Source: Escherichia virus TH44. Taken from it: 64,000 bases of DNA. This document shows, in pieces, positions 1,602 through 56,650 of this stretch (position 1 is its first letter; each line of letters opens with the position of its first letter). The position numbers and the translations under genes were made by a program. The DNA lies in the sequence record MT446415.1; one strand, given 5' to 3'. The notes below the pieces were generated by a model, which worked only from the letters and a program-made list of their open reading frames with translations, was not told the DNA's origin and ran no database searches.

Positions 1602-3548
1602 TTATAGTGTAATTGGTTCAAGGTCAATCTTTGTATATTGCGGACGAAGGTCATTCTCAAATACAATCAGTGAACCATCTTGCGTGTATATATTATCTTG
1701 GTTAGGACTTGCATAAAGTTCGATTGATTGAACTTCAAAGCGCTCGGAGGTCAATCCAATCGCGGCGATATCCCAAAAAATATAATCAGAGTAATAGTCA
1801 ATTTCGCCAATTGCGTAATAAACTGTTTGGTCAGCCGGAGCTTCCATTTTATTAAAGTCATCTTGCAGGTAAGGCTGGATGTTTACATTTTCAATAACAT
1901 CGCCTGGACGGAATGGACCAATTACCATTTTACCATCGCCACGAGAATCTTTATCAGTTGCAACAATGCGAACGTTATAGGCTTCACCCGTGGTCGGAAC
2001 AAATTCAAATTCACTTGATTCGACTGAACGGTTGCCATACTGGTTATAGTATTTAATGCCGGATTCTGGAGTCTTAAAGAAGTTCAGGACTTCACGCACC
2101 ATCGAAATGGTTGCAGATGAACCAAGAATACTATGGTCAGTATTATCCACATACGTAAGCATTTTTGACTTAGCAAAACTTCTGTTAAAGATTTCAACTT
2201 CATCGATATAATAACGGTCAATCTGATTAATGATTTGTGCTTGCAGCCATTGTTCAGATTCTTGTAATTTGTTCAGCGCATAAGATACTTTGATATTATG
2301 TTTAAGGAACAAATAATCCGGAGAAATTACCGAGGGTGTAATTGTTGATACGTTGAACTCGCTAAGGTAGTTCTGGATGTCCTCACGCTGCACTGCAGTG
2401 AGATACAAGCCCGATTTAGGCTTAACTGATATAAACGCATACCCAGGCTTATTTGCGTCTGTAAACGTCTGTACGGCTTGCACGATTGAACCAAATCTTT
2501 CAGATACGAAGGTATCATAATCTGTTCCGGTGACAGCACGCATCTGCGCTTCACGTTTAACAACAGCCAGTTCACGGATACGTTCGATATCTTCTGGGTC
2601 ACCACCGCCATCGGCACCGACATAATCAGGGTCGTTGTTGTAGTTTTCAGTAATTTTATCCACTGTGATATAAGACAAAGTATCGGCATAACTGAAATCA
2701 ACAGCGCCGTTTGCATCTGCCCCTGAGGTACGAAGATATTCAATAACAATTGTCGAATCTTGCACCGGTTTGAGACCGCCAATATAGTTGGCTTCCATAA
2801 CGCCACCGGCTACGGATTTGGTGGATTCACCTTCACCGAAGAAAAATTCAGTATAGCCATCGATTGTTTCACGCATATAAAATATGGTGGAAGTCGAACC
2901 AGCATGGACCATTGATTTGTTCGTCCAGTCAACCCACTCAACACCGTTCACATATAACTTAACTTCTTTGCGGTCGATATCCGGGTCGCGAATAAGAATA
3001 GGTTGTTTCGGGTCATATAAAAGTTCTGTACGAATAATACGGCCCTGGGCCAGAGATACAATCGGAAGGTATTGGTTGTTAATATCTTTAACCGCAATAA
3101 CGTTTTCCGTGGTAACAAAAACATAAGGGTCAGCTGATGTATCACGAGCATATGCCAGGAATTTAGTTCCTCGTGGGATTTCAATATTCGATGGTTGCAG
3201 AGCATGAGAACATGTCAACATAACCGAAGTCTTTGCGGCCGAACGTGAAGATGGAAGATATCCATTATCCTGTGCCGCCTGAACAACCGAAGACCTTAAG
3301 TTTGCAGTTCCGATAAATGATTCATAAACTGCTGTATTAGCAAACTGCTGCATATAAAGTGTATTATACGCAAGCATGTCAATCAGGATATTCATTCGCG
3401 AACCTACGAAATCATAATCCTTAAATTCATCCTGGCTTGATAACCAGTCGATGATGTTCTTTTTAATTTCTTCAAACGTAGCTCCCACAAATACTTTTGG
3501 GATAGCGTTAACGGTTCTTGTTAATTGGTAATTCGTAGGAGTAGCCAT
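1602..3548 (-). CDS. 6: baseplate wedge protein gp6
   Basis: 648 aa; N-terminus MATPTNYQLTRTVNAIP...DYDFVGSRMNIL matches remembered T4 gp6; T4 gene order. Confidence 0.9.
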   Translation of the reverse strand: MATPTNYQLTRTVNAIPKVFVGATFEEIKKNIIDWLSSQDEFKDYDFVGSRMNILIDMLAYNTLYMQQFANTAVYESFIGTANLRSSVVQAAQDNGYLPSSRSAAKTSVMLTCSHALQPSNIEIPRGTKFLAYARDTSADPYVFVTTENVIAVKDINNQYLPIVSLAQGRIIRTELLYDPKQPILIRDPDIDRKEVKLYVNGVEWVDWTNKSMVHAGSTSTIFYMRETIDGYTEFFFGEGESTKSVAGGVMEANYIGGLKPVQDSTIVIEYLRTSGADANGAVDFSYADTLSYITVDKITENYNNDPDYVGADGGGDPEDIERIRELAVVKREAQMRAVTGTDYDTFVSERFGSIVQAVQTFTDANKPGYAFISVKPKSGLYLTAVQREDIQNYLSEFNVSTITPSVISPDYLFLKHNIKVSYALNKLQESEQWLQAQIINQIDRYYIDEVEIFNRSFAKSKMLTYVDNTDHSILGSSATISMVREVLNFFKTPESGIKYYNQYGNRSVESSEFEFVPTTGEAYNVRIVATDKDSRGDGKMVIGPFRPGDVIENVNIQPYLQDDFNKMEAPADQTVYYAIGEIDYYSDYIFWDIAAIGLTSERFEVQSIELYASPNQDNIYTQDGSLIVFENDLRPQYTKIDLEPITL

Positions 3549-3556
3549 TTTATTTC

Positions 3557-3850
3557 CTATTTTATAAAGACTTTTGATGAGGCTTGAGCCACAGTATCAC
3601 CACATGAAATCGGGTCTGCCATTTGAACAGCTTTCTTACCGGTAACAAATACTTTTGATGTGCGCGGTTGTGTTACTCCACCGTGAGTTTCATATGGTTT
3701 TTTAATTTCGGTATGCTCGGTAATAGGGTCCCCGGCAACTAACACCGGAATTCCCCCGGTGAATACTTTACCTTGAGTTGCATTAATTACAGTCGGTGGC
3801 CATGCTTCGTGGCCTGCTGTAACACATTGATTGAAACTTAATCCAGCCAT
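3557..3850 (-). CDS. 5.4: PAAR-repeat spike-tip protein gp5.4
   Basis: 97 aa, same length and position as T4 gp5.4; start overlaps 5.1 stop (TAATG). Confidence 0.8.
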
Positions 3851-4371
3851 TAATCCCTCGCATATACGTATGAACGCAATTTATCTGCCCATCTTGACCA
3901 GTTACCAACGATAGTTTTTGTGTAAACTTTTGTCATTGTTTTTCTTACTGGAGCAGGAGGTGGGTCGGTCTCATTACCCGCACGGCTATTACTGCCACCA
4001 GAGCTCCCTGTGTCTCCACCAGAGCTCTCTTCTTGAAAGTCATAGGTTAGGGTTACCGTGTATGAAAAGACTCTCTGGAGGCTCGCTGGGGCCCTCCAGA
4101 GATACAATTGAGTACTCTTATCGGTAGGAAGGTCTTCCCATGAACCAGCAGTTTTGAATTCATCATTAAGCCGATATTTAAGTGCATCATCTGCGAATCC
4201 GAACACGGATTCATAAACGCCATAAAGATGATTCTCCTCAACATTAACGCCAGGGGTGGCCTCATATTCAGTTATATTTATTTCGACTAATGTTTCGTTT
4301 GTTTCTAATTGAGCTGTAAACGTAACATCGATTGAGGCTCCTTCCATGGAGTCTCCTAAGTCAGTGCTCAT
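3850..4371 (-). CDS. 5.1: gp5.1-like protein
   Basis: ORF between genes 5 and 5.4; first ATG downstream of gene 5 stop chosen (track ORF begins at TTG 4431). Confidence 0.6.
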
Positions 4372-4381
4372 TGGAAGTATA

Positions 4382-6124
4382 TTAGCCAATGTCAATCCTC
4401 GAACCATCAATAGTATATTGACCAGATGCAATAGAACTCATTGTTGACATTGTTTCGGACCAATTGCCAGCCACGGTCATATCAACGTTTCCATTAACGG
4501 ACCATTTGACATTACCATTTACCGTATAATCATGGTTACCTTCGACAAGAGTTTTTGCGTCACCTTTAACAGTTATTTCAGCATTACCTTCGACCAAAAT
4601 ACTTACATTACCTTTGACAATAATTGTACCGTCACCTTCAATGGTTTTGGTTTCATTCCCACGAATATGAATGCTTTCGTTTCCATCGGTCTGACGACGA
4701 ACGTTAGCCATATTATAATAGGTTTCATCACCACCAACGTTGACTTTATTATTACCGCCAACGTAAGTACTCGAATCGCCCTGGGTCATATAATAACCAT
4801 CAGCCACTGTCTTCGAAGTCTTACGACCGTCTGGTGCAACTTCCTCATAGGAACCGGTTGGATGAATCAGTCGATAACGTTCTTGTCCAGGGGTGTTATC
4901 AAATTCCTGAATATGACCGCCTTCAGTTTGCATTGTCTGCACGTAAGGATATTCGCCCTTGTAACTGGATTCTGGCTCTTTAAACAGAATCCTCGTATCT
5001 TCTGGAGTCCATGGGTCGGCTGGGTCAGAATTTGCAGGGGCTGCAAAGGTTTGAATCATCCTATATGAACGCCCTTTAAATGACCTTTCTTTAGGGGCCA
5101 TAATACCATATGATTCCATGTTACCTGTAAGGATAATCATTGATACCCTTGATGCACGGCCTTTAGTTTGGTTAAACCATACAGAATCACGAGCGGCATC
5201 AAATGCTTTCTTATAATCTCCAGCTAACATTGCAGCGAGCATCGTTTTAAATTTAGCAAGCCCACCCAATCCCATTTGGAAAGCCATGTTTTCAAGAGCC
5301 ATTTGTCTCGAACGGTTTTCTTTATTGTAAACTGGACCCACGACACTATGTCGACCTATATCGTTTTGCACTTTTTTAAGGTCTTCTTGGAATAATTTAG
5401 AGGCCTCGTCCATTGATATTGCACCAGGGTTACCTTTAACTTCACGGCCTATTTGATTAGATAATATTTTGTTTATCTGATTCATATCTCTAATAGGTTG
5501 TGGTGCAATCAAGTGTCCTATACCTATAGTAGGATAACCTTCGGTGTCCCAATATACTTTCAAACGAAGACCTTCATCACGGTGAAGCATATTTTCAATT
5601 GTGAAATTAGGATTATCATCTGGCTTAACTTGACTCAAATCAAGGCCATCGGGGTTAATACCAAGGTCAAGGTTTGCATCCTGAATTACGTTCGAAGTTG
5701 CATCATAACCGACCTCACCGCCTCGGTTGAGCGCAGCAGCATCATTACCTACATAAAGTGGATATTGTCCTGTGGGGTCAGAGAAGCCTTCGTTGGGATT
5801 TGCTTTTTGTCTTGAGGCTGAACCATATGTACCAAGGACTAATCCGTTAAGTTTCCACTTGTCTAAAAAGTGACCATACACTTGAGTCCCTGGCACCATA
5901 CCGGTCATTGCAGTTTGAATACCCGAAACTGATGCAGATGATGTTGGCATCAATACAGACATCCATGGCAGGTCTTCAGTTCTGATACCTTTTACAGGCC
6001 CTTGCGATTTCTCATATGGATGCATACCCCATACACGGACACGGACTCGACCTTGTTGAAGTGGGTCCATTCGGTCTTCGACAACACCGACGAACCAACT
6101 TACACTATCTGACATATTAATCAT
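4382..6124 (-). CDS. 5: baseplate hub and tail lysozyme gp5
   Basis: 580 aa; internal lysozyme motif GYPTIGIGHLI; C-terminal VxGxxxxx beta-helix repeats; start overlaps gene 53 stop (ATGA). Confidence 0.93.
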   Translation of the reverse strand: MINMSDSVSWFVGVVEDRMDPLQQGRVRVRVWGMHPYEKSQGPVKGIRTEDLPWMSVLMPTSSASVSGIQTAMTGMVPGTQVYGHFLDKWKLNGLVLGTYGSASRQKANPNEGFSDPTGQYPLYVGNDAAALNRGGEVGYDATSNVIQDANLDLGINPDGLDLSQVKPDDNPNFTIENMLHRDEGLRLKVYWDTEGYPTIGIGHLIAPQPIRDMNQINKILSNQIGREVKGNPGAISMDEASKLFQEDLKKVQNDIGRHSVVGPVYNKENRSRQMALENMAFQMGLGGLAKFKTMLAAMLAGDYKKAFDAARDSVWFNQTKGRASRVSMIILTGNMESYGIMAPKERSFKGRSYRMIQTFAAPANSDPADPWTPEDTRILFKEPESSYKGEYPYVQTMQTEGGHIQEFDNTPGQERYRLIHPTGSYEEVAPDGRKTSKTVADGYYMTQGDSSTYVGGNNKVNVGGDETYYNMANVRRQTDGNESIHIRGNETKTIEGDGTIIVKGNVSILVEGNAEITVKGDAKTLVEGNHDYTVNGNVKWSVNGNVDMTVAGNWSETMSTMSSIASGQYTIDGSRIDIG

Positions 6125-6723
6125 AATGACTTCTCCATCTCACGGATTAATGCCGAAATAAATGATTCGATATCATTAGGGTCGATTATCTTTATTTCTC
6201 GTTTATATTCATTTTTGCGAATAGCATCTTCATAGATATCTACTGCAGCTAATGGACCTTCATATTGGGGGTACAATTTATTCTTATCACCTTTATCATA
6301 CCAGGTGTACGGATTATCAGGATAAGAAACAAGATTCCAGAATTTTTCACCATCTTCATTTACATGATAAAGAACCTGATTACCACCTATATTCGAATAG
6401 CGTTGAATTGATGCCTGATACGATGATTCTTGTGAACATATCCAACCATAATAAGGGTCATAGATATTATTAAGCATAAGGAGAACCCAATAGAGTTGCG
6501 TGTTCCCATAGAGCTGGTATGCAAGTTCTTCAGGTCTCGGAGCTCCGGCGATGTAATATGTTTTTGGTGTATAATTAACCGCAACCTTATCAAAATAGGC
6601 ACGATAGTTTCTGAAGATGTCAGTCATTGGGATGCTTAAGACGTCTTCTTTCGTTAATGATGCCGAGTTTTTTCTGATTGTTTTTGCATCATAATCAATT
6701 GGGTTAAAAAATGAAAAAAGCAT
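6121..6723 (-). CDS. 53: baseplate wedge protein gp53
   Basis: N-terminus MLFSFFNPIDYDAK resembles T4 gp53 (MLFTFF...); ATG at 6723 with GGAGG 5 nt upstream (track ORF starts at upstream TTG). Confidence 0.88.
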   Translation of the reverse strand: MLFSFFNPIDYDAKTIRKNSASLTKEDVLSIPMTDIFRNYRAYFDKVAVNYTPKTYYIAGAPRPEELAYQLYGNTQLYWVLLMLNNIYDPYYGWICSQESSYQASIQRYSNIGGNQVLYHVNEDGEKFWNLVSYPDNPYTWYDKGDKNKLYPQYEGPLAAVDIYEDAIRKNEYKREIKIIDPNDIESFISALIREMEKSL

Positions 6724-6735
6724 AAAGCCTCCATT

Positions 6736-6743
6736 TATAAATA
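6736..6743 (+). promoter_or_regulatory. T4-type late promoter TATAAATA for gene 4; divergent 7/8 late-like box on the other strand (6754-6761) for gene 53
   Basis: Exact TATAAATA about 28 nt before gene 4 ATG with SD taggagg in between. Confidence 0.6.
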
Positions 6744-6771
6744 AGTATATCAATATTTATTAGGAGGCTAT

Positions 6772-7221
6772 ATGGCATACTCCGGGAAATTTAAGCCCAC
6801 CAATATAGAAAAATATAAGGGCGACTGGAAGAAAATACAATACCGGTCAAGCTGGGAGGCTTGGTTGATGAGATGGCTCGACAATCATCCGAACGTTGTT
6901 CAATGGGGCTCTGAGACTGTGATTATTCCATACTTCTGCAATGCTGAAGGGAAAAAGCGCAGATATTATATGGATTTCTGGGTTAAGTTTGATACAGGGC
7001 AACAGTTCTTTTTTGAAGTTAAGCCGTTAAAAGAAACAAGACCCCCAACCAAACCGGCTAATAATACCACTGCGAGTAAAAAGAGATTTATTAACGAAAT
7101 GTACACCTGGAGCGTTAACTCTGACAAATGGAAAGCTGCACAAGCTACCGCGGATAAGATGGGTATAACTTTCAGGATAATCACTGAAAACTCACTGAAA
7201 AAATTAGGATGGAAAGGATGA
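6772..7221 (+). CDS. 4: head completion protein gp4
   Basis: 149 aa; MAYSGKF...[11 protein letters not shown] resembles T4 gp4. Confidence 0.92.
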
Positions 7222-8042
7222 GTATTTTTACATTTATCAATGAATCTGCAGATAAACCAGGTCCGAAACCCAGTAAATCAGAACAACAATGGGTTGAAAT
7301 AGGGGTTGAATTTTATACAGCAAAAGAAAAGGGAATGACCTCGAAGAAGTTTGCTGAAGAGAAAGGAATCAACTATTCGACCTTTACCAAAAGCATGTCA
7401 AGATATCATTCGAGAATTCAGACTGCTTATAAAGTATCCAAGCTCAAAAAGAAACCTGCTGGTAAACTTACGAAGGCTGAACGTCAGCTGATAATGGTGA
7501 ATAGCTTTAGAAAGAGCATAAGAGATAAGATTGCTAACGAAGGCGCTGCAAGCAACACCAAATCTGCCAGATGGTTCGCTGAGACAATTAAGAAATCAGT
7601 TCGTGGTCACGTAACGGCTAAACCCCAACCGGGTAAGATTTATGCTTATATCTATGATGCAAAGCATAAGGATACTCTTCCGTACTGGGACAAATATCCG
7701 TTAATCATTTATCTTGGGCTAGGTAAGCACAATTTGATGTATGGTTTGAACTTGCACTATATTCCACCGAAGGCACGTCAAGAGTTCCTTGAGGAACTTC
7801 TTAAGCAATATGCTAATACTCCTACGATTACGAACAAGACTCATCTGAAGATTGATTGGTCAAAGGTAAAGGGATTTAAAGGGGCTGACCAGATGATTAA
7901 AGCATATATACCTGGCAATATAAAAGGTACTATCACTGAAATCAAGCCCAGCGACTGGGCAAACGTGGTATTACTCCCCCTTCAGCAGTTCATGTCGAAA
8001 GGCAAAAGATATTCTTCCCAGAAAGTATGGAGAAATTCATAA
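7209..8042 (+). CDS. 2: DNA end protector protein gp2
   Basis: 277 aa ORF in T4 gene-2 position (T4 gp2 is 274 aa); called by synteny and size. Confidence 0.8.
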
Positions 8043-8053
8043 TCTATTATCGG

Positions 8054-8101
8054 TCAGTGTTATTGGTAAGGACAAAAGGTCTAGAACCATTATAACACTG
8101 A
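8054..8101 (+). repeat. 10-bp perfect inverted repeat (tcagtgttat / ataacactga) with 28-nt spacer between genes 2 and 3
   Basis: Read directly from sequence; possible RNA hairpin or protein-binding site. Confidence 0.5.
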
Positions 8102-8127: not shown

Positions 8128-8727
8128 ATGTCAGGTTTATATAATCAAACTAACACGACTAACTTTATATTAGAGGTGAGCGATTCAAACCTCACACAGA
8201 CCTTTAAACTAAACGTTCAAGACGTTACCCTCCCAGGGGTTCACATTCCTGTGACGGATGTTCCTGGCGGAACACAAGGTATAAATCGCTCCAGTCTTCC
8301 TGGTAGTACAATAGAATTCGACCCGCTGATTGTTAACTTTCTGTGTGACAAAGACCTAAGAGCGTGGCTTGACATCTATAAATGGATGCTCTCGCTCAAC
8401 AACTACATCACACACGAATCAAAAGCATGGCATCCGAAGGGTCGTCCCGAAGCGGTCACGCTTCATATCTTAGATAACAACAAGGACAAAATTGTCATGT
8501 CAATCCATTACTATGGAGCATGGCCGTCCGACCTGTCAGAGATTCAGTACTCATATAAAGAAGATTCTGACCCGGCTATCAATGCAACAGCAACTTTTAA
8601 CTTTAAGTCTTTTGCTGTAGAAATTGATGGTATAATAATAGAAGGTAGACCACAGATTGATAGTAATGCAGCAATGCAACAGGAAATCAGGTCTAAGTCA
8701 ATGCATCCATCTATGAGAAACGTATGA
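8128..8727 (+). CDS. 3: tail completion / sheath stabiliser gp3
   Basis: 199 aa ORF in T4 gene-3 position between 2 and 1; called by synteny. Confidence 0.7.
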   Translation: MSGLYNQTNTTNFILEVSDSNLTQTFKLNVQDVTLPGVHIPVTDVPGGTQGINRSSLPGSTIEFDPLIVNFLCDKDLRAWLDIYKWMLSLNNYITHESKAWHPKGRPEAVTLHILDNNKDKIVMSIHYYGAWPSDLSEIQYSYKEDSDPAINATATFNFKSFAVEIDGIIIEGRPQIDSNAAMQQEIRSKSMHPSMRNV

Positions 8728-13509: not shown

Positions 13510-13583
13510 GGCCCTGTAGCTCAATTGGTTAGAGCATCCGGCTCATAACTGGCAGGTTTCCGGTTCAAGTCCGGATGGGGCCA
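13510..13583 (+). tRNA. tRNA with CAT anticodon (Met or lysidine-type Ile2)
   Basis: Manual cloverleaf: acceptor ggccctg/tggggcc, D arm gctc..gagc, anticodon loop ctCATaa, T arm tccgg-ttcaagt-ccgga; resembles E. coli tRNA-Ile2. Confidence 0.8.
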
Positions 13584-13585
13584 CC

Positions 13586-13662
13586 CGGGGTGTAGCTCAA
13601 TTGTATAGAGCAACGGTCTTCTAAACCGTAGGTTGTGGGTTAGAATCCCACCACCCCGACCA
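13586..13662 (+). tRNA. tRNA-Arg (anticodon TCT), CCA encoded
   Basis: Manual cloverleaf: acceptor cggggtg/caccccg, anticodon stem acggt/accgt, loop ctTCTaa, T arm gtggg-ttagaat-cccac, then A+CCA. Confidence 0.88.
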
Positions 13663-20497: not shown

Positions 20498-21457
20498 ATG
20501 ATGTTAGTTATTGGTTCTCGTGCATTACATAACGCTGGTCTGATTGAAAGTCAGAAAATTGAAAACTCTGATTGGGACTTTATCGCTGACCAGGGTTCTT
20601 GGAACCACTTTAAAGCACGTATGTTCGGGGCTCATGTTCCTGTGGATAACCCTAACGTCCAAGCTTTTAAATGTATGTACAATGGCAAAGAAACCTATTT
20701 TGAAGCTTATATTGTCCGTGCCCTGACCAATGTCAGAGAAATTACTGGTGAGCTTCAAGACGAAGATTTCACCTCAAGTTATCGTCTCTTGAAATACGCT
20801 GAAAATCATATTAAGAAAGACCGTCTTACAGGTTTCTATTGGGCGACGCCTGATATTTGCCTGGCGATTAAATTGTCTCATCGTTACCTGAAGAACAATC
20901 CATTCTTCCTGAAGACCATGAGTCATATTAATTACCTTCGCAATAAGGGTGTTGTTCTTAATGATGAACTGCAAAAAATCATGCTACAGCGTCAGGCAGA
21001 AACATTGTCATATAGTCACCCTAAACTAGACGTGGGCAAGAAAACTTTCTTTAATGATACAATCTATACCCTTGACCATGACTCCATCCACGAGGCCGTG
21101 GCGCTTGCTGATAAGCCTGCATATAAGTTCTATATGAAGGATGATTCAGAAGTCATGACCTCACGTGAAAAATTTGAAGCACTCCCTGATGTTATTAAAC
21201 TGGCAGGGGTTTATGAAGAAGCATGTGTGCTCGCTCTGGAGCGTTCGCAGGTTCCTAATGAGTTCAATATCTCTCCATCCGTGAGCTTCCATGTTGCGCT
21301 GGAAAAAGTCTGCACCTCCATTACTTCTGGATGGTTCCGTGAGTACGCCTGGGAACATTACCAGGAAGTGGTTAATATGTATAACACCCTGGGTCGCGAA
21401 GACTATGTTAAACGCTTCAAGGCTAACCAACATTTAATTCGCCCTTTCACAAAATAA
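20498..21457 (+). CDS. hypothetical protein (319 aa)
   Basis: N-terminus LVIGSRALH...ENSDWDF weakly resembles a nucleotidyltransferase G[S]...D.D motif. Confidence 0.6.
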   Translation: MMLVIGSRALHNAGLIESQKIENSDWDFIADQGSWNHFKARMFGAHVPVDNPNVQAFKCMYNGKETYFEAYIVRALTNVREITGELQDEDFTSSYRLLKYAENHIKKDRLTGFYWATPDICLAIKLSHRYLKNNPFFLKTMSHINYLRNKGVVLNDELQKIMLQRQAETLSYSHPKLDVGKKTFFNDTIYTLDHDSIHEAVALADKPAYKFYMKDDSEVMTSREKFEALPDVIKLAGVYEEACVLALERSQVPNEFNISPSVSFHVALEKVCTSITSGWFREYAWEHYQEVVNMYNTLGREDYVKRFKANQHLIRPFTK

Positions 21458-31280: not shown

Positions 31281-31286
31281 TTCAAA

Positions 31287-31313
31287 AGGTCTGCCTTCGG
31301 GTGGACCTTTTTT
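31287..31313 (+). terminator. rho-independent terminator with UUCG tetraloop
   Basis: aaggtctgcc-ttcg-ggtggacctt then TTTTT; ~90-bp block repeated at 60581-60670. Confidence 0.75.
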
Positions 31314-33135: not shown

Positions 33136-33588
33136 ATGATTATCAATGCAAACTCTTGGCACGTTAAATTACACGACCGTTTTTACGACCGTAATTCTCG
33201 ACCACACTCTCTGTGTGCTTATTTCTGGAAAATGGTTTGGGCTTGTTTTGCTTGTGCTGTTGTTGCAGGTAGTACGCTTTTTGGATTAACTGTTGCAGGG
33301 GCTGGGGTATTAGAGCATTTCTTTGTATTAAGTACTCCTGTTCTGTTGAGTCTCGGGTTTGTTTTAGGGTTGGCTACGATAGCTCTTATTATTGCGCTAT
33401 CCATTGGTTTGGCATTAGGTGCGATGAATTTACACGCATGGTATGATGCACGTATAGAAGAAAAGGAATGGCAACGTATTCTAGCCAAACGTGAAGGAAA
33501 GGAAATTAAAGAAAATATCGTCATTCAATATATCAAAGCTCGTAAATCTAAGATGTGTCCGGTAATCCATTTTGAGGCGAAGAAATGA
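33136..33588 (+). CDS. membrane protein
   Basis: 150 aa, several TM helices. Confidence 0.6.
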   Translation: MIINANSWHVKLHDRFYDRNSRPHSLCAYFWKMVWACFACAVVAGSTLFGLTVAGAGVLEHFFVLSTPVLLSLGFVLGLATIALIIALSIGLALGAMNLHAWYDARIEEKEWQRILAKREGKEIKENIVIQYIKARKSKMCPVIHFEAKK

Positions 33589-34595
33589 GAACAGTTATGA
33601 AAGGCTACTTCGGTAGCCATCTTTATGGAACAAGTACCCCGGAATCTGATGTCGATTTTAAAGAAATCTTTGTTCCGCATCCTCGTGATATTCTACTTGG
33701 GACGGCGATGAACCATACCAACCTGAATACGAATAACACGGCCACCAAAAATACAAAAGATGATGTTGACCATGAGCTTTACAGCCTGAAATATTTCTTT
33801 AAACTGGCGGCCGAAGGCGAAACCGTTGCTCTGGATATGATTCACACCCCGGCTGACCTGGTTGTCAAATCCGATTTACCGGATGTATGGAAGTTTATTC
33901 AAGACAACCGTTCGCGGTTTTATACAACTAACATGAAAGCCTATTTGGGGTATGTCCGTAAGCAAGCTTCCAAATATGGTGTTAAAGGTTCTCGTCTGGC
34001 TGCTCTGCGTGGTGTACTGGCAATCGTTAACCAGATTCCTGAACAGTGGGTCGACTATCAAGAAGGAATCCCTGATAGACTTCGTCGTACTAAGGTAGAA
34101 GATATCAAACACAGACTCCCTGAAAACGAGTTCTGTGAATGGGTATTCCATAACCATGAGAAAACAGGTCCACAAACGTTCTATACTGTTCTCGGACGTA
34201 AGTACCAAACAACGTTATCAATTACAGAGCTTAAGCAATCTCTGAATAAACTTGATGCTGAATATGGTGAACGTGCTCGTAAGGCAGAAGCCAATGAAGG
34301 TATTGACTGGAAAGCTCTGAGTCACGCTTATCGCGCAGGGTATCAATTGATGGAAATCTACCAAACAGGTGACTTGGTGTTCCCATTGCGCGAAGCCTCT
34401 ATCATTAAGCTGATTAAAGCCGGTGAATTACCATTTAAAGAAGTTCAAGAACTTCTTGAAGATACTGTTGATTTGGTTGAAGTTCTGGCTATCCAGGCTC
34501 ATAAGAACGGTATGCCTGAGAAGGTAGACATGAAGTTCTGGGACAAGTTCGTTGAAGAGGTATATCTTGACAACCACAACTCTTATTATCGATAA
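33585..34595 (+). CDS. Pol-beta-superfamily nucleotidyltransferase-like protein
   Basis: N-terminal GSHLYGTSTPESDVDF fits G[S]x9D.D nucleotidyltransferase motif; 336 aa. Confidence 0.6.
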   Translation: MRTVMKGYFGSHLYGTSTPESDVDFKEIFVPHPRDILLGTAMNHTNLNTNNTATKNTKDDVDHELYSLKYFFKLAAEGETVALDMIHTPADLVVKSDLPDVWKFIQDNRSRFYTTNMKAYLGYVRKQASKYGVKGSRLAALRGVLAIVNQIPEQWVDYQEGIPDRLRRTKVEDIKHRLPENEFCEWVFHNHEKTGPQTFYTVLGRKYQTTLSITELKQSLNKLDAEYGERARKAEANEGIDWKALSHAYRAGYQLMEIYQTGDLVFPLREASIIKLIKAGELPFKEVQELLEDTVDLVEVLAIQAHKNGMPEKVDMKFWDKFVEEVYLDNHNSYYR

Positions 34596-34791
34596 CCAGG
34601 AAATCAAGGTCTTCTTATCATATGGAAGACCTCATAAAGGTCGCCGCTGGTATCTCGAAGCAGTCTGTCGGGAAACTGGTCGTCGAGTCAATATTAAGTA
34701 CACATGCAAACCAACTCCCAAGCAAACTCGCAGGTTTGTCAACTGGGCTATCAATACTATAAGATTCCATAATTTTTGGAGTGCAATCTAA
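34552..34791 (+). CDS. small basic protein (uncertain)
   Basis: 79 aa ORF overlapping previous gene by 44 nt; terminator directly after its stop. Confidence 0.35.
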   Translation: MKRYILTTTTLIIDNQEIKVFLSYGRPHKGRRWYLEAVCRETGRRVNIKYTCKPTPKQTRRFVNWAINTIRFHNFWSAI

Positions 34792-34814
34792 GGACCCTTC
34801 GGGGTCCTTTTTTA
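34792..34814 (+). terminator. rho-independent terminator
   Basis: ggaccc-ttcg-gggtcc followed by TTTTTT. Confidence 0.75.
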
Positions 34815-45089: not shown

Positions 45090-45647
45090 ATGAACGAAAT
45101 TAAATTAACCAAGAATAACTATGTAAATAATAAAGAGCTTTTGAAAGCTATTTCGGAGTGGAAACAGAAGCTGAATGCGAACACTGACCCGAACAAAATT
45201 ATTCGCCAGAACGATGTTATTGGTCTGGCGATTATGCTTATAGCCGAAGGTCTTAGCAAACGTTTTAACTTCTCCGGATATACCCAATCCTGGAAGCAAG
45301 AAATGATAGCGGACGGAATTGAGGCCGCAATAAAAGGTCTTCACAACTTCGACGAAACAAAATACGATAATCCACATGCTTACATAACAATGGCTTGCTT
45401 CAATGCTTTCGTTCAGCGTATCAAAAAAGAACGTAAAGAAATGGCAAAGAAATATAGCTACTTCGTCCATAACGTATATGATTCACGTGACGACGATATG
45501 GTGGCTCTGGCTGATGAAACATTTATCCAGGACATCTATGACAAAATGACACAGTACGAATCCTCCTTAGTTAAAGTGCCAGGGTCTGATAAGAGCACCA
45601 AAGATAAAGAGGGTGATTTGGATTTTTTATATGGAACATCAATTTGA
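45090..45647 (+). CDS. 55: late-transcription sigma factor gp55
   Basis: 185 aa; [12 protein letters not shown]...[41 protein letters not shown]..., near-identical to T4 gp55. Confidence 0.96.
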
Positions 45648-53623: not shown

Positions 53624-56338
53624 ATGCAAGAATTTTATTTAACTATCGAACAAATTGGTGACAATCTGCTCGAACGATACATTGACAAGAACGGTCATGA
53701 ACGTGTTCGTGAAATCCCTTATGCTCCATGCTTGTTTATGCACGCCCGGGAAGGTCAGGCTGCAAAGTATACAGACATCTATAATAAAGGTTGTGTGAAA
53801 AAAGAATTCGATTCCATGCGTGATGCGTCCCAGTGGATGAAGCGAATGAATGACATGGGTCTCGAAGCTATGGGTATGGATGACTTTAAACTCGCATACT
53901 TGTCCGACCGTTACCCGCACGAAATCAAATATGATTCAAGTAAAATCCGTGTTGCTAACTTCGATATCGAGGTGACATCTCCCGATGGGTTCCCTGAACC
54001 GTCTGAAGCACGTCACCCTATTGATGCCCTGACGCACTATGATTCGGTAGACGATAAATTCTATGTCTTTGACCTTTTGGGCTCACCATACGCCACTGTG
54101 GAGCAATGGTCTATTGATATTGCTGCTAAGCTACAGGAAGACGGCGGTGATGAAGTCCCTGAAGAAATCCTGGAAAAAATTGTTTATATGGCTTTCGATT
54201 CAGAAGAAGAAATGCTCCAGCAGTATTTGGTATTCTGGAACGAGAAAACTCCGGTTATGCTAACTGGTTGGAACATCGAGAAGTTTGATATTCCATATAT
54301 CTACAACCGCCTTAAAAATATATTTGGTGAAGCTACAGCAAAACGTCTGAGCCCACATCGTCGTACAAAAGTTAAGGTCATTAACAACGGCTTTGGTGAA
54401 GAACAAGAAATCATTCAGATTCTGGGTATCTCTGTTCTGGATTATCTGGACCTGTATAAAAAGTTCAGCTTCACAAACCAACCGTCTTATTCGTTGGATT
54501 ATGTTGCGGAATCTGAACTTGGTGTTGGTAAACTCCCGTATGATGGCCCGATTTCTAAACTGCGTGAATCAAATCACCAGCGGTATATTTCTTATAACAT
54601 CATCGACGTTTATCGTGTTGTGCAGATTGACCGTAAGCGGCAGTTTATTAACCTGAGCCAGTCAATGGGTTATTATGCAAAAATGCAGATTCAGTCTGTA
54701 TTCAGCCCAATCAAAACTTGGGATGCGATTATCTTTAACAGCCTGAAGACTCAAAACAAAGTCATTCCGGAAACCAAATCGCATGTTCGTCAATCGTTCC
54801 CTGGTGCATTTGTTAAGGAACCGATTCCGAACGCATACAAATATGTAATGAGCTGTGACTTAACATCTCTGTATCCGAGCATTATCCGACAGATTAACAT
54901 CAGTCCAGAAACGATTGCCGGTTCATTTGCACCAGCCCAGATGTATGAATACATCGCAGGAACTGCTGACCGTCCATCTGATACATTTAGTTGTGCTCCA
55001 AATGGTATGATGTATTTTAAAGATGTTGCGGGTATTATTCCGACAGAAGTCACCAAGGTGTTTAATCAGCGTAAAGAACACAAAGGCTATATGCTTGCGG
55101 CTCAACGTAATGGTGAACTGATTAAGGAAGCTCTGCGTAATCCAGGAACGGGTACAACCGAGCCTGAAGTTGATTATCGTTATGACTTTGATGACAATAT
55201 GAAAACGGCCCTGCATGGTCTGAATCAAACAGTCCTGAATGGTATGCTGTACAAAGCGCAGATGGAAGAAGTTGCAGGCATGACCGCACAGATTAACCGT
55301 AAACTGCTTATCAACAGTTGTTATGGCGCTCTGGGCAATATCTGGTTCCGTTACTTTGACCTGCGAAATGCGACCGCGATTACATCTTTCGGACAACTTG
55401 CATTGCAGTGGATTGAGCGTAAAGTTAACGAATACTTCGATAGTGTTTGTGGGACAAGCGGCGAAACTTATGTGTTCTATGGCGATACTGACTCCATTTA
55501 TATCCAGTGCGATAACCTTATTAAAAAGGTTGGTGGTGAATCTAAATTCCGTGATACAAACCACCTGGTTGACTTCATGGACAAGTTTGCGAAAGACCGC
55601 CTGGAACCGGCAATCGATAAAGCTTTCCGTGAGCTGGCTGAATACATGAACAACAAACAGCATCTTATGTTTATGGACCGTGAAGCGATTGCATGTCCTC
55701 CGCTGGGTTCTAAAGGTGTGGGTGGATTCTGGACGGCGAAGAAACGTTATGCGCTGAACGTGTACGATATGGAAGGCACACGTTATGCTGTTCCGAAATT
55801 GAAAATCATGGGTCTGGAAACTCAAAAGTCGAGTACTCCAAAGGCATGTCAGAAAGCTCTGAAAGAATGTATCCGCCGTATGCTGCAAGAAGGTGAAGAA
55901 TCCCTGCAGACATACTTCAAGGAATTCAATAAGGAATTTAATGAGCTTAACTATATGACCATCGCGGGTGTATCATCGGTTAACAACATCCAGAAATATA
56001 ATGAAGGTGGTTTCCCTGGATTTAAGTGCCCGGCTCATATCAAAGGTGTGCTTGCATATATGCGTGCAACTAAAGGTCTGAAGACTGTTCCGCAAATCAT
56101 GGAAGGGGAAAAGGTGTATGTACTTCCTCTTAAAGTCGGCAACCCGTTTGGTGAAACCGTGATTGCATGGCCATCTGGGATTGAACTCCCGATTGAAATC
56201 CGTGACCAGGTTCTGCAGTGGATGGATTACAGTGCTTTGTTCCAGAAGACTTTTGTTAAGCCGTTATCAGGTTTCTCTGAAGCTGCAAAGGTTGATTACG
56301 AAAAGAAAGCAACTCTTTTTGACATGTTCGACTTTTAA
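53624..56338 (+). CDS. 43: DNA polymerase gp43
   Basis: 904 aa; exo motifs FDIEV and YNIIDV, pol motifs DLTSLYPSII, KILINSCYGALG, YGDTDS. Confidence 0.98.
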   Translation: MQEFYLTIEQIGDNLLERYIDKNGHERVREIPYAPCLFMHAREGQAAKYTDIYNKGCVKKEFDSMRDASQWMKRMNDMGLEAMGMDDFKLAYLSDRYPHEIKYDSSKIRVANFDIEVTSPDGFPEPSEARHPIDALTHYDSVDDKFYVFDLLGSPYATVEQWSIDIAAKLQEDGGDEVPEEILEKIVYMAFDSEEEMLQQYLVFWNEKTPVMLTGWNIEKFDIPYIYNRLKNIFGEATAKRLSPHRRTKVKVINNGFGEEQEIIQILGISVLDYLDLYKKFSFTNQPSYSLDYVAESELGVGKLPYDGPISKLRESNHQRYISYNIIDVYRVVQIDRKRQFINLSQSMGYYAKMQIQSVFSPIKTWDAIIFNSLKTQNKVIPETKSHVRQSFPGAFVKEPIPNAYKYVMSCDLTSLYPSIIRQINISPETIAGSFAPAQMYEYIAGTADRPSDTFSCAPNGMMYFKDVAGIIPTEVTKVFNQRKEHKGYMLAAQRNGELIKEALRNPGTGTTEPEVDYRYDFDDNMKTALHGLNQTVLNGMLYKAQMEEVAGMTAQINRKLLINSCYGALGNIWFRYFDLRNATAITSFGQLALQWIERKVNEYFDSVCGTSGETYVFYGDTDSIYIQCDNLIKKVGGESKFRDTNHLVDFMDKFAKDRLEPAIDKAFRELAEYMNNKQHLMFMDREAIACPPLGSKGVGGFWTAKKRYALNVYDMEGTRYAVPKLKIMGLETQKSSTPKACQKALKECIRRMLQEGEESLQTYFKEFNKEFNELNYMTIAGVSSVNNIQKYNEGGFPGFKCPAHIKGVLAYMRATKGLKTVPQIMEGEKVYVLPLKVGNPFGETVIAWPSGIELPIEIRDQVLQWMDYSALFQKTFVKPLSGFSEAAKVDYEKKATLFDMFDF

Positions 56339-56340
56339 GT

Positions 56341-56370
56341 GTTTACAACGGCAATGGATTGCCGTATTAT
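56341..56370 (+). promoter_or_regulatory. early promoter (GTTTAC-N18-TATTAT) with palindromic spacer
   Basis: Directly after gene 43 stop; spacer contains cggcaat-gg-attgccg. Confidence 0.5.
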
Positions 56371-56407
56371 TACCTCATCAACTGATGAATAACTTAAGGA
56401 TATTAAA

Positions 56408-56650
56408 ATGGAAACATTAATTGCGGGTACTGTTGTTCTTGGTGCAGGTTCTTTCTTCCTGGCTGCACTGGCATATTTTCTGCCGTGGATTATCGCGCTG
56501 CTGCGTGGTACCAAAAGTAATTGTGGAATCTTCTTTGTTAACCTCCTGATAGGTTGGACAATGGTCGGATGGTTTATTGCATTTATCTGGGCACTCGTTG
56601 CTGAACGTAAATCAAACGCACAAGTAATTATCATCAAGGAAGCAAAATGA
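56408..56650 (+). CDS. small inner-membrane protein (Imm-like position)
   Basis: 80 aa, two TM helices; lies where T4 has imm. Confidence 0.55.
   Translation: METLIAGTVVLGAGSFFLAALAYFLPWIIALLRGTKSNCGIFFVNLLIGWTMVGWFIAFIWALVAERKSNAQVIIIKEAK

Follow-up and report, generated by a model that had tools for sequence, protein, structure and literature searches.

The repair of tRNA by the T4 enzymes Pnk and Rnl1 is the textbook case of a virus undoing host RNA damage. In this heal-and-seal pathway, directed in T4 by PseT and Rnl1 against the anticodon nuclease PrrC, the classical machinery consists of two enzymes. Here, we find that a nucleotidyltransferase (NTase) gene in Escherichia virus TH44, at positions 33585-34595 (+ strand) of a 64,000-nucleotide stretch of sequence record MT446415.1 (the whole of which we call the window), is the ortholog of T4 nrdC.11 and encodes a Pol-beta-fold NTase, an identification that we regard as practically certain. 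We further suggest, with moderate confidence, that NrdC.11-type members of the RlaP family, a name that stands for "RNA ligase-associating Pol-beta", assist the phage tRNA-repair enzymes, which is our favoured explanation overall. What is observed here is the orthology, the family, the fold, the conserved catalytic residues, and the operon linkage in relatives.

The RlaP family was characterised in a December 2025 preprint describing two Pseudomonas enzymes encoded between rtcB and rtcA (PMC12776372). These label E. coli RNA (rRNA-sized, tRNA-sized, and fragment-sized), and not DNA or protein, by adding 1-2 nucleoside monophosphates to 3'-OH, and not 3'-phosphate, ends; they accept all four nucleoside triphosphates (NTPs) as well as deoxyadenosine triphosphate (dATP), and work best with Mn2+ (PMC12776372). 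Given nicked-tRNA mimics, they choose the 5' half's 3' end in preference to the acceptor end, and when a tRNA is missing one anticodon-loop nucleotide, pretreatment with RlaP partly restores aminoacylation after ligation (PMC12776372). The crystal structure of PfRlaP has an N-terminal NTase domain, a C-terminal helical domain, and three conserved aspartates (PMC12776372). The same work assigns T4NrdC.11, described there as "of unknown function", to PF10127, within cluster 5 of the similarity network, and points out that 5'-phosphate ligases such as T4 Rnl1 are well served by the 3'-OH that RlaP produces (PMC12776372). Both the name RlaP and the repair prediction are credited to Burroughs and Aravind (2016), as that work is cited in PMC12776372 and PMC7824862.

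A possible need for such an enzyme comes from anticodon nucleases that do more than cut. RloC excises the wobble nucleotide, a lesion that might defy repair by T4 Pnk and Rnl1, a question left open in 2008 (PMC2610378), and in jumbo phages RlaP has been predicted to restore nucleotides lost, for instance to RloC, prior to ligation (PMC7824862). In T4 itself, nrdC.11-mobD.3 is among the blocks that can be deleted (PMC9825161), and a viable genome-reduced clone (OL964745.1) keeps only the last 35 codons of nrdC.11. Literature searches under alternative gene and protein names did not find a functional study of NrdC.11.

How does the TH44 gene compare? A sequence-only reading of the window had pointed to a 336-residue open reading frame (ORF) with a GS...DxD signature at 33585-34595, had assigned it to the Pol-beta superfamily, and had found it to have no counterpart among the T4 core genes that it recognised. 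The ORF, which is initiated by ATG and begins MRTVMKGYFGSHLYGTSTPESDVDFKEIF, is present with its signature exactly as claimed; the statement about T4 is wrong. The closest DNA matches of the window are Escherichia phages MN01 and vB_EcoM_RZ (94%), followed by Gaprivervirus SP18 and VR7 (86-87%), and judged by these the window belongs to a T4-like (Tevenvirinae) phage. In SP18 and VR7 the gene at the same position is labelled nrdC.11 and carries the RefSeq product name 'nucleotidyltransferase'. T4 nrdC.11 (NP_049709.1, record positions 55435-56445) has the same 336 codons, and its product is 79% identical to the window NTase across 336/336 residues with zero gaps, shares the N-terminal GSHLYGTSTPESDVDFKEIFVP motif, and is most diverged in the C-terminal third (70% identity). 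The NTase gene is syntenic with nrdC.11 of SP18, VR7, and T4, sitting between homologs of mobD.1 and of nrdC.9, nrdC.8, and nrdC.6; the order tk ... mobD.1 homolog, NTase, nrdC.9, nrdC.8, nrdC.6, nrdC.4 ... nrdC is common to the window, SP18, and T4. The T4 locus differs in having the HNH homing endonuclease gene mobD directly upstream, where the window has a gene for a 150-residue membrane protein (phrog_944) instead. The gene is therefore already catalogued, as an ortholog of T4 nrdC.11, as a member of Pfam RlaP and PHROG 388, and under a RefSeq product name, and a published proposal for its likely role exists.

The nomenclature of these orthologs is confused. Many GenBank and UniRef entries are named 'thioredoxin', apparently since the gene takes its label, nrdC.11, from the thioredoxin gene nrdC in its neighbourhood; 'HNH homing endonuclease' and 'ArsR family regulator' are further names in use. 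Going by domain content, the thioredoxin name is wrong; PF10127 is the sole Pfam family in the protein.

Membership in the RlaP family is well supported. The window protein matches PF10127 ('RlaP, RNA repair pathway DNA polymerase beta family') at 48.7 bits (E 1.1e-12), against a gathering cut-off of 23 bits, and it matches PHROG 388 'nucleotidyltransferase' (phrog_388) over its full length (E 4.5e-131). All 71 of 71 diverse clade members, at 35-80% identity, match PF10127 and no other Pfam family. Relatives form 2715 clusters at 90% identity; 3238 representative clusters match the NTase at E <= 0.001 and 849 at E <= 1e-30, with a length of about 300-360 residues maintained down to about 35% identity among the full-length matches listed. 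Among 50,697 records of isolated phages, 1521 have a homolog (full length in 1442), most being T4-like phages of Escherichia, Klebsiella, Shigella, Aeromonas, Acinetobacter, and Vibrio. With the Pseudomonas fluorescens and P. aeruginosa enzymes the clade has in common PF10127, the Pol-beta NTase N-terminal domain with a helical C-terminal domain, the conserved aspartates, and genomic links to RtcB and to 5'-phosphate RNA ligases; it differs in a beta-rich, cassette-like variable insert (residues 150-212) and in that, within T4-like phages, the NTase gene is unlinked to ligase genes.

The catalytic signature consists of G10-S11, ten residues, and D22-x-D24 (GSHLYGTSTPESDVD; 33612-33656, +), and 71/71 relatives, including those at only 35% identity, retain G10, S11, G15, S21, D22, and D24. 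As a bare pattern the motif is weak and is not by itself diagnostic of an NTase: translating the window in six frames gives 3 occurrences of GSx(9-13)DxD, compared with 1.1 +/- 1.0 in shuffles. Because the pattern is barely above shuffles, the NTase call rests on profile, structure, and conservation. The two other occurrences lie at 8302 (+), within a tail-tube-family protein (ORF 8128-8727), and at 45582 (+), within the gp55 late sigma factor (ORF 45090-45647).

The third metal ligand of Pol-beta-fold NTases sits on a strand at about the spacing from DxD at which D60 and D62 are found here. Each of these two residues is acidic in 70/71 relatives, and they lie on a beta-strand 38-40 residues after DxD. 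The D60-V-D62 segment (33762-33770, +), at the start of predicted strand 61-67, is thus a candidate for the third catalytic carboxylate, which in the model would be supplied by D60 or D62. Elsewhere in the protein Y131, R230, K243, H247, R250, P267, and G280 are invariant across the 71 relatives, and K130, K134, R137, and K278 nearly so; the conserved basic residues, including those on helix 118-149, putatively bind RNA or NTP phosphate.

An AlphaFold2 model of the NTase, built on the 71-member alignment, was obtained with high confidence (mean predicted local distance difference test score, pLDDT, 93.1; predicted template-modelling score, pTM, 0.77). The structure search proposed alongside the sequence-only reading was run, and the model does contain a Pol-beta NTase domain, so that the palm is not missing. 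This predicted N-terminal domain (residues 1-117; 33585-33935, +) has strands 2-9, 23-30, 44-48, and 61-67 followed by helices. It leads into a long helix (118-149; 33936-34031, +) carrying the conserved Q127, K130, Y131, K134, G135, and R137, then into the beta-rich insert (150-212; 34032-34220, +) with strands 154-159, 162-168, 184-191, 195-202, and 205-208, and finally into a helical C-terminal domain (about 213-336; 34221-34592, +) that holds the invariant R230, K243, H247, R250, P267, and G280. The predicted combination of an NTase domain with a helical C-terminal domain is that of the PfRlaP crystal structure. Neither sequence nor fold search found an RlaP structure among the PDB chains, and the Foldseek matches of the model are all distant (E >= 0.0098, template-modelling score, TM, <= 0.31). 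The nearest solved structures are two-domain NTases of the kanamycin nucleotidyltransferase type, together with Hailong HalB, at 7-14% identity and TM-score <= 0.31; their substrates differ, being aminoglycosides and protein-primed oligo-dA, respectively.

The insert is the most variable part of the protein. Among 21 T4-like orthologs, mean pairwise identity is 53% in the insert (about residues 147-212) versus 81% in the N-terminal part and 71% in the C-terminal part. It exists as three discrete sequence variants with flanks that are 80-90% identical; for example, a protein named from phage T2 (P0074, 80% identical to the window protein) and a second ortholog (P0117) share 92/38/84% of residues in the N-terminal part, insert, and C-terminal part. 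This pattern suggests a swapped or fast-evolving cassette, which could be a substrate-specificity module or merely a recombination hotspot.

An indication of function comes from the genes that accompany relatives of the NTase. We collected 79 viral and 80 cellular loci, the latter contributed by Desulfobacterales, Nitrospirota, Alphaproteobacteria, and a number of archaeal bins. For 34 distinct distant viral loci, 133 proteins encoded no more than 3.5 kb from the NTase were scanned with Pfam, which identified RtcB (4), T4-type Rnl1 (3), PF09414 RNA ligase (2), AAA_33 kinases (4), and HD domains (7). Of these viral loci, 9/34 have an RNA ligase no farther than about 3.5 kb from the NTase (about 6.4 kb in locus L067), and 15/80 cellular loci have one within 6 kb (RtcB 12, Rnl1 3). 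The cellular figure is a large excess, because by a rough estimate the chance of finding a single ligase gene in a 13-kb stretch of a bacterial genome of a few megabases is well under 1%.

Several of these loci bring together the very enzymes of T4 repair. Cellular locus L164 is an overlapping operon of NTase (1120-2073, PF10127), Rnl1 (2070-3128, PF09511), and Pnkp (3121-4002), the last a P-loop kinase joined to an HAD_PNKP phosphatase, which is the architecture of T4 Pnk. The same three genes (NTase, Rnl1, and T4-type Pnkp) are found in L087, and L112 combines an HAD_PNKP phosphatase, the NTase, and RtcB. In viral locus L078, a fusion of HD phosphoesterase and P-loop kinase (4530-5672), Rnl1 (6020-7144), and the NTase (7159-8088) lie on one strand, with 15 nucleotides between Rnl1 and NTase, and in viral locus L076 the NTase is accompanied by a small HD protein and by RtcB. 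The NTases in these operons with ligase or end-healing genes belong to the same clade, at 35-45% identity to the window protein. Thus, it is the NrdC.11 clade itself, beyond PF10127 generally, that is tied to the enzymes that T4 uses for tRNA repair.

Two other kinds of neighbour recur near NTase homologs. A gene for a small HD-domain protein (about 170-190 residues) directly follows, and often overlaps, the NTase gene in a set of unrelated contigs, made up of viral loci L062, L073, L074, L076, and L081 and cellular loci L103 and L141; it may be a dedicated phosphoesterase partner, and no equivalent is seen beside the window NTase. Within 3.5 kb of NTase homologs there are also a NAMPT/NAPRTase-type enzyme in viral loci L039, L047, L050, L054, and L063 and an NMNAT-Nudix fusion in viral loci L038, L039, L042, L047, and L054. 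The presence of these nicotinamide adenine dinucleotide (NAD) salvage genes may reflect simply the gene order of those genomes.

In light of these findings, what might the role of NrdC.11 be? We suggest that it is a template-independent NTase that would act as an accessory third enzyme in T4 heal-and-seal tRNA repair. Once a host anticodon nuclease had cut a tRNA, PseT would convert the 2',3'-cyclic phosphate on the 5' half to a 3'-OH; where the nuclease had also removed a nucleotide, NrdC.11 would add one back onto this 3'-OH, and Rnl1 would then seal the end to the 5'-phosphate made by PseT. The phage could thereby restore tRNAs with RloC-type lesions, which are beyond the reach of plain heal-and-seal, and NrdC.11 would matter only for lesions that remove a nucleotide. 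The chemistry is compatible at both steps, in that the 3'-OH made by Pnk is a substrate of RlaP and the product of RlaP is a substrate of Rnl1 (PMC12776372; PMC2610378). It is a closer match to T4 than to systems with RtcB, given that the 3'-OH left by RlaP is what Rnl1 requires (PMC12776372). By analogy with the Pseudomonas enzymes, we infer the same activity for the phage protein, along with a role in the infected cell. That the window NTase adds nucleotides to RNA 3' ends is, on this analogy, fairly probable; that its specific biological role is to re-add a nucleotide during tRNA repair we regard as an evenly balanced proposition. The fold assignment of the sequence-only reading was correct, and among the roles that it listed, the modification of a host RNA holds as a predicted one.

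Several observations weigh against this proposal. Only the N-terminal half of the protein, residues 8-135, aligns with PF10127 (profile positions 25-143 of 249), and the clade carries a beta-rich insert. To our knowledge, no nucleotide-excising anticodon nuclease restricts T4-like phages in nature. Linkage to repair genes is confined to distant relatives: in T4-like genomes, including the window, the NTase gene is not adjacent to pseT, rnlA, or rnlB. In T4 these lie at 134.0, 136.3, and 108.6 kb and nrdC.11 at 55.4 kb, or 50-80 kb away, and tblastn searches of the 64-kb window with T4 PseT, RnlA, and RnlB were all negative. The closest annotated relative of the window, vB_EcoM_RZ, does encode PseT (76% identical to that of T4) and Rnl1 (52%). 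Furthermore, the characterised RlaPs belong to cluster 1a and T4 NrdC.11 to cluster 5, and untemplated addition gives the correct nucleotide in only a fraction of molecules (PMC12776372). Finally, nrdC.11 is dispensable on laboratory E. coli (PMC9825161); dispensability on laboratory hosts is also the pattern expected of a host-range or counter-defence gene. We note in passing that the PseT of vB_EcoM_RZ (NC_070780.1 142990-143895; L165:12991-13896, - strand; 76% identity to T4 PseT over 301 residues) is annotated merely as 'ATPase' in RefSeq.

One alternative is that the NTase adds nucleotides to RNA 3' ends for another purpose, either rebuilding 3'-CCA or tailing host or phage RNAs so as to alter their stability or use in translation. 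The top structural neighbours of the model, all of them enzymes that nucleotidylylate 3' ends or hydroxyls, are compatible with this, as is a variable insert that could set different substrate preferences in different phages. So is the loose specificity of the published RlaPs, which label varied E. coli RNAs and use all four NTPs and dATP (PMC12776372). These same enzymes, however, use the acceptor end of nicked-tRNA mimics less readily than the 3' end of the 5' half (PMC12776372). Neither the NTase nor the clade members match the CCA-adding/poly(A) polymerase families of Pfam (PolyA_pol head domain), and in relatives the NTase shares its operons with end-healing enzymes and ligases, pointing to the repair of breaks. 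We therefore consider general tailing or CCA rebuilding unlikely.

The NTase might instead nucleotidylylate a protein or small molecule, either AMPylating a HEPN-type RNase toxin in the manner of MNT or modifying a metabolite or antibiotic-like compound in the manner of ANT. The resemblance to kanamycin nucleotidyltransferase-like enzymes is what brings this to mind, and like the nucleotide-signal reading taken up below it rests on distant fold similarity, with each family assignment tested for either proving negative. The NCBIfam model for MntA, which has a cut-off of 60 bits, reaches 15 over the 18 residues from 8 to 25, a match of motif length. No HEPN gene occurs among the five neighbouring ORFs scanned (the three just upstream being left out), so the toxin-antitoxin role entertained in the sequence-only reading is unsupported. 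Moreover, no labelling of E. coli proteins was seen with the published RlaPs (PMC12776372), and such a function is hard to square with the linkage to RNA ligase and Pnk in relatives. Taken together, this makes a protein or small-molecule target quite improbable.

A nucleotide or oligonucleotide immune signal, which the NTase would make or intercept, has even less in its favour. The conceivable model is HalB, whose oligo(d)A keeps a Hailong-type channel closed, yet a HalA-like partner was not found for the window NTase and HalB is absent from the matches in sequence and profile searches of PDB chains. PADLOC models match the NTase over at most 17 residues (PDC-S09), and do not match the upstream membrane protein at all. 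Pairing with that membrane protein is seen only in T4-like genomes whose gene order is conserved, and the T4 locus itself lacks it. No cyclic-nucleotide synthase (cGAS/DncV-like) is among the structural matches to the model, and membership in a signal-interceptor family was likewise not found. The idea of signal synthesis or interception is thus left unsupported by defence models, PDB searches, structural matches, and context, and we judge it highly improbable. Assignment of the NTase to a defence system, to MntA, or to Hailong was rejected, the PADLOC and NCBIfam matches being of motif length only. Little more can be said for a counter-defence device, in which the enzyme would produce decoy (deoxy)nucleotide tails or oligomers (against a Hailong channel, for example) or silence a HEPN-type nuclease, with the insert setting the target; this is suggested by the HalB-like fold and the family's use of dATP, and we hold it to be just as improbable.

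Least probable of all is an inactive or vestigial gene retained by its position among dispensable T4 early genes: nrdC.11 can indeed be deleted in T4 without loss of viability (PMC9825161) and the region is rich in homing endonucleases and small genes lacking assigned function, but full-length homologs in 1442 phage records, 3238 clusters at E <= 0.001, catalytic residues invariant to 35% identity, and conserved length and domain order indicate purifying selection on an active enzyme.

The genes around the NTase in the window add context. Directly upstream, and translationally coupled by its arrangement, is the gene for the 150-residue predicted membrane protein (phrog_944; 33136-33588, +): the NTase ATG overlaps its stop codon (ATGA, 33585-33588), as in coupled genes, and a Shine-Dalgarno sequence GAGG (33574-33577, +) can be read 7 nucleotides before that ATG. 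The membrane protein has no PADLOC match. A phrog_944-type homolog, often abutting and sometimes only about 30% identical, is found upstream of the NTase in 25 T4-like loci, and is found neither at the T4 locus nor in the distant or cellular loci examined. We considered membrane protein and NTase as a conserved two-gene module and rejected it; the pairing occurs in syntenic T4-like genomes only, which indicates conserved gene order.

Downstream, a small ORF listed as 79 residues (DUF7279, phrog_8921; 34552-34791, +) overlaps the last 44 nucleotides of the NTase gene, an overlap that recurs in 11 related loci. Directly after it, a consensus scan detected a strong terminator-like hairpin, AAGGACCCTTCGGGGTCCTT, followed by a T-run (34790-34809, +), which probably ends the transcription unit. 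The unit that contains the NTase may have its start marked by a similar hairpin at 31284-31311. The five neighbouring ORFs scanned belong to y05I-like, membrane, DUF7279, or DUF7203 families or to none, and have no PADLOC match (the scan did not take in the three just upstream). Elsewhere in the window there are only two tRNA genes (Met-CAT and Arg-TCT, back to back at 13510-13662, +), the corresponding region of T4 having eight.

A second protein of the window also adopts an NTase fold. The 319-residue product of the ORF at 20498-21457 (+; MMLVIGSRALH...NSDWDF; DUF7277 and DUF7275, phrog_2141) had been described as carrying a weaker version of the same motif. The ORF exists and has an NTase fold. 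Its GS and DxD elements are spaced by 17 residues, beyond the 9-13 range, and its family, an unrelated one, keeps G6, S7, D25, D27, and E69 without exception. Its C-terminal domain (DUF7275) has an invariant D193-H194-D195 ... H198. Homologs comprise 1990 clusters and occur in 731 phage records, including RB69 (ORF134c), with no T4 record among the matches listed. The possibility of this ORF being a paralog of the RlaP-clade NTase was rejected, as the profile-profile probability is 0.28%. The closest fold is that of MenT-type tRNA nucleotidyltransferase toxins, at about 10% identity; the phage-encoded protein differs from these in its extra conserved C-terminal domain (DUF7275), and an antitoxin-like neighbour was not identified. 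It is thus a real but separate NTase-fold protein, of a MenT-like family unrelated to RlaP.

The idea that RlaP acts in repair is already in the literature (Burroughs and Aravind 2016, as cited; the December 2025 preprint names T4 NrdC.11), and our findings confirm and localise a known gene. Should NrdC.11 indeed re-add the lost nucleotide, repair in T-even phages would comprise a third step, and the question raised in 2008, whether RloC lesions are repairable, would become testable.

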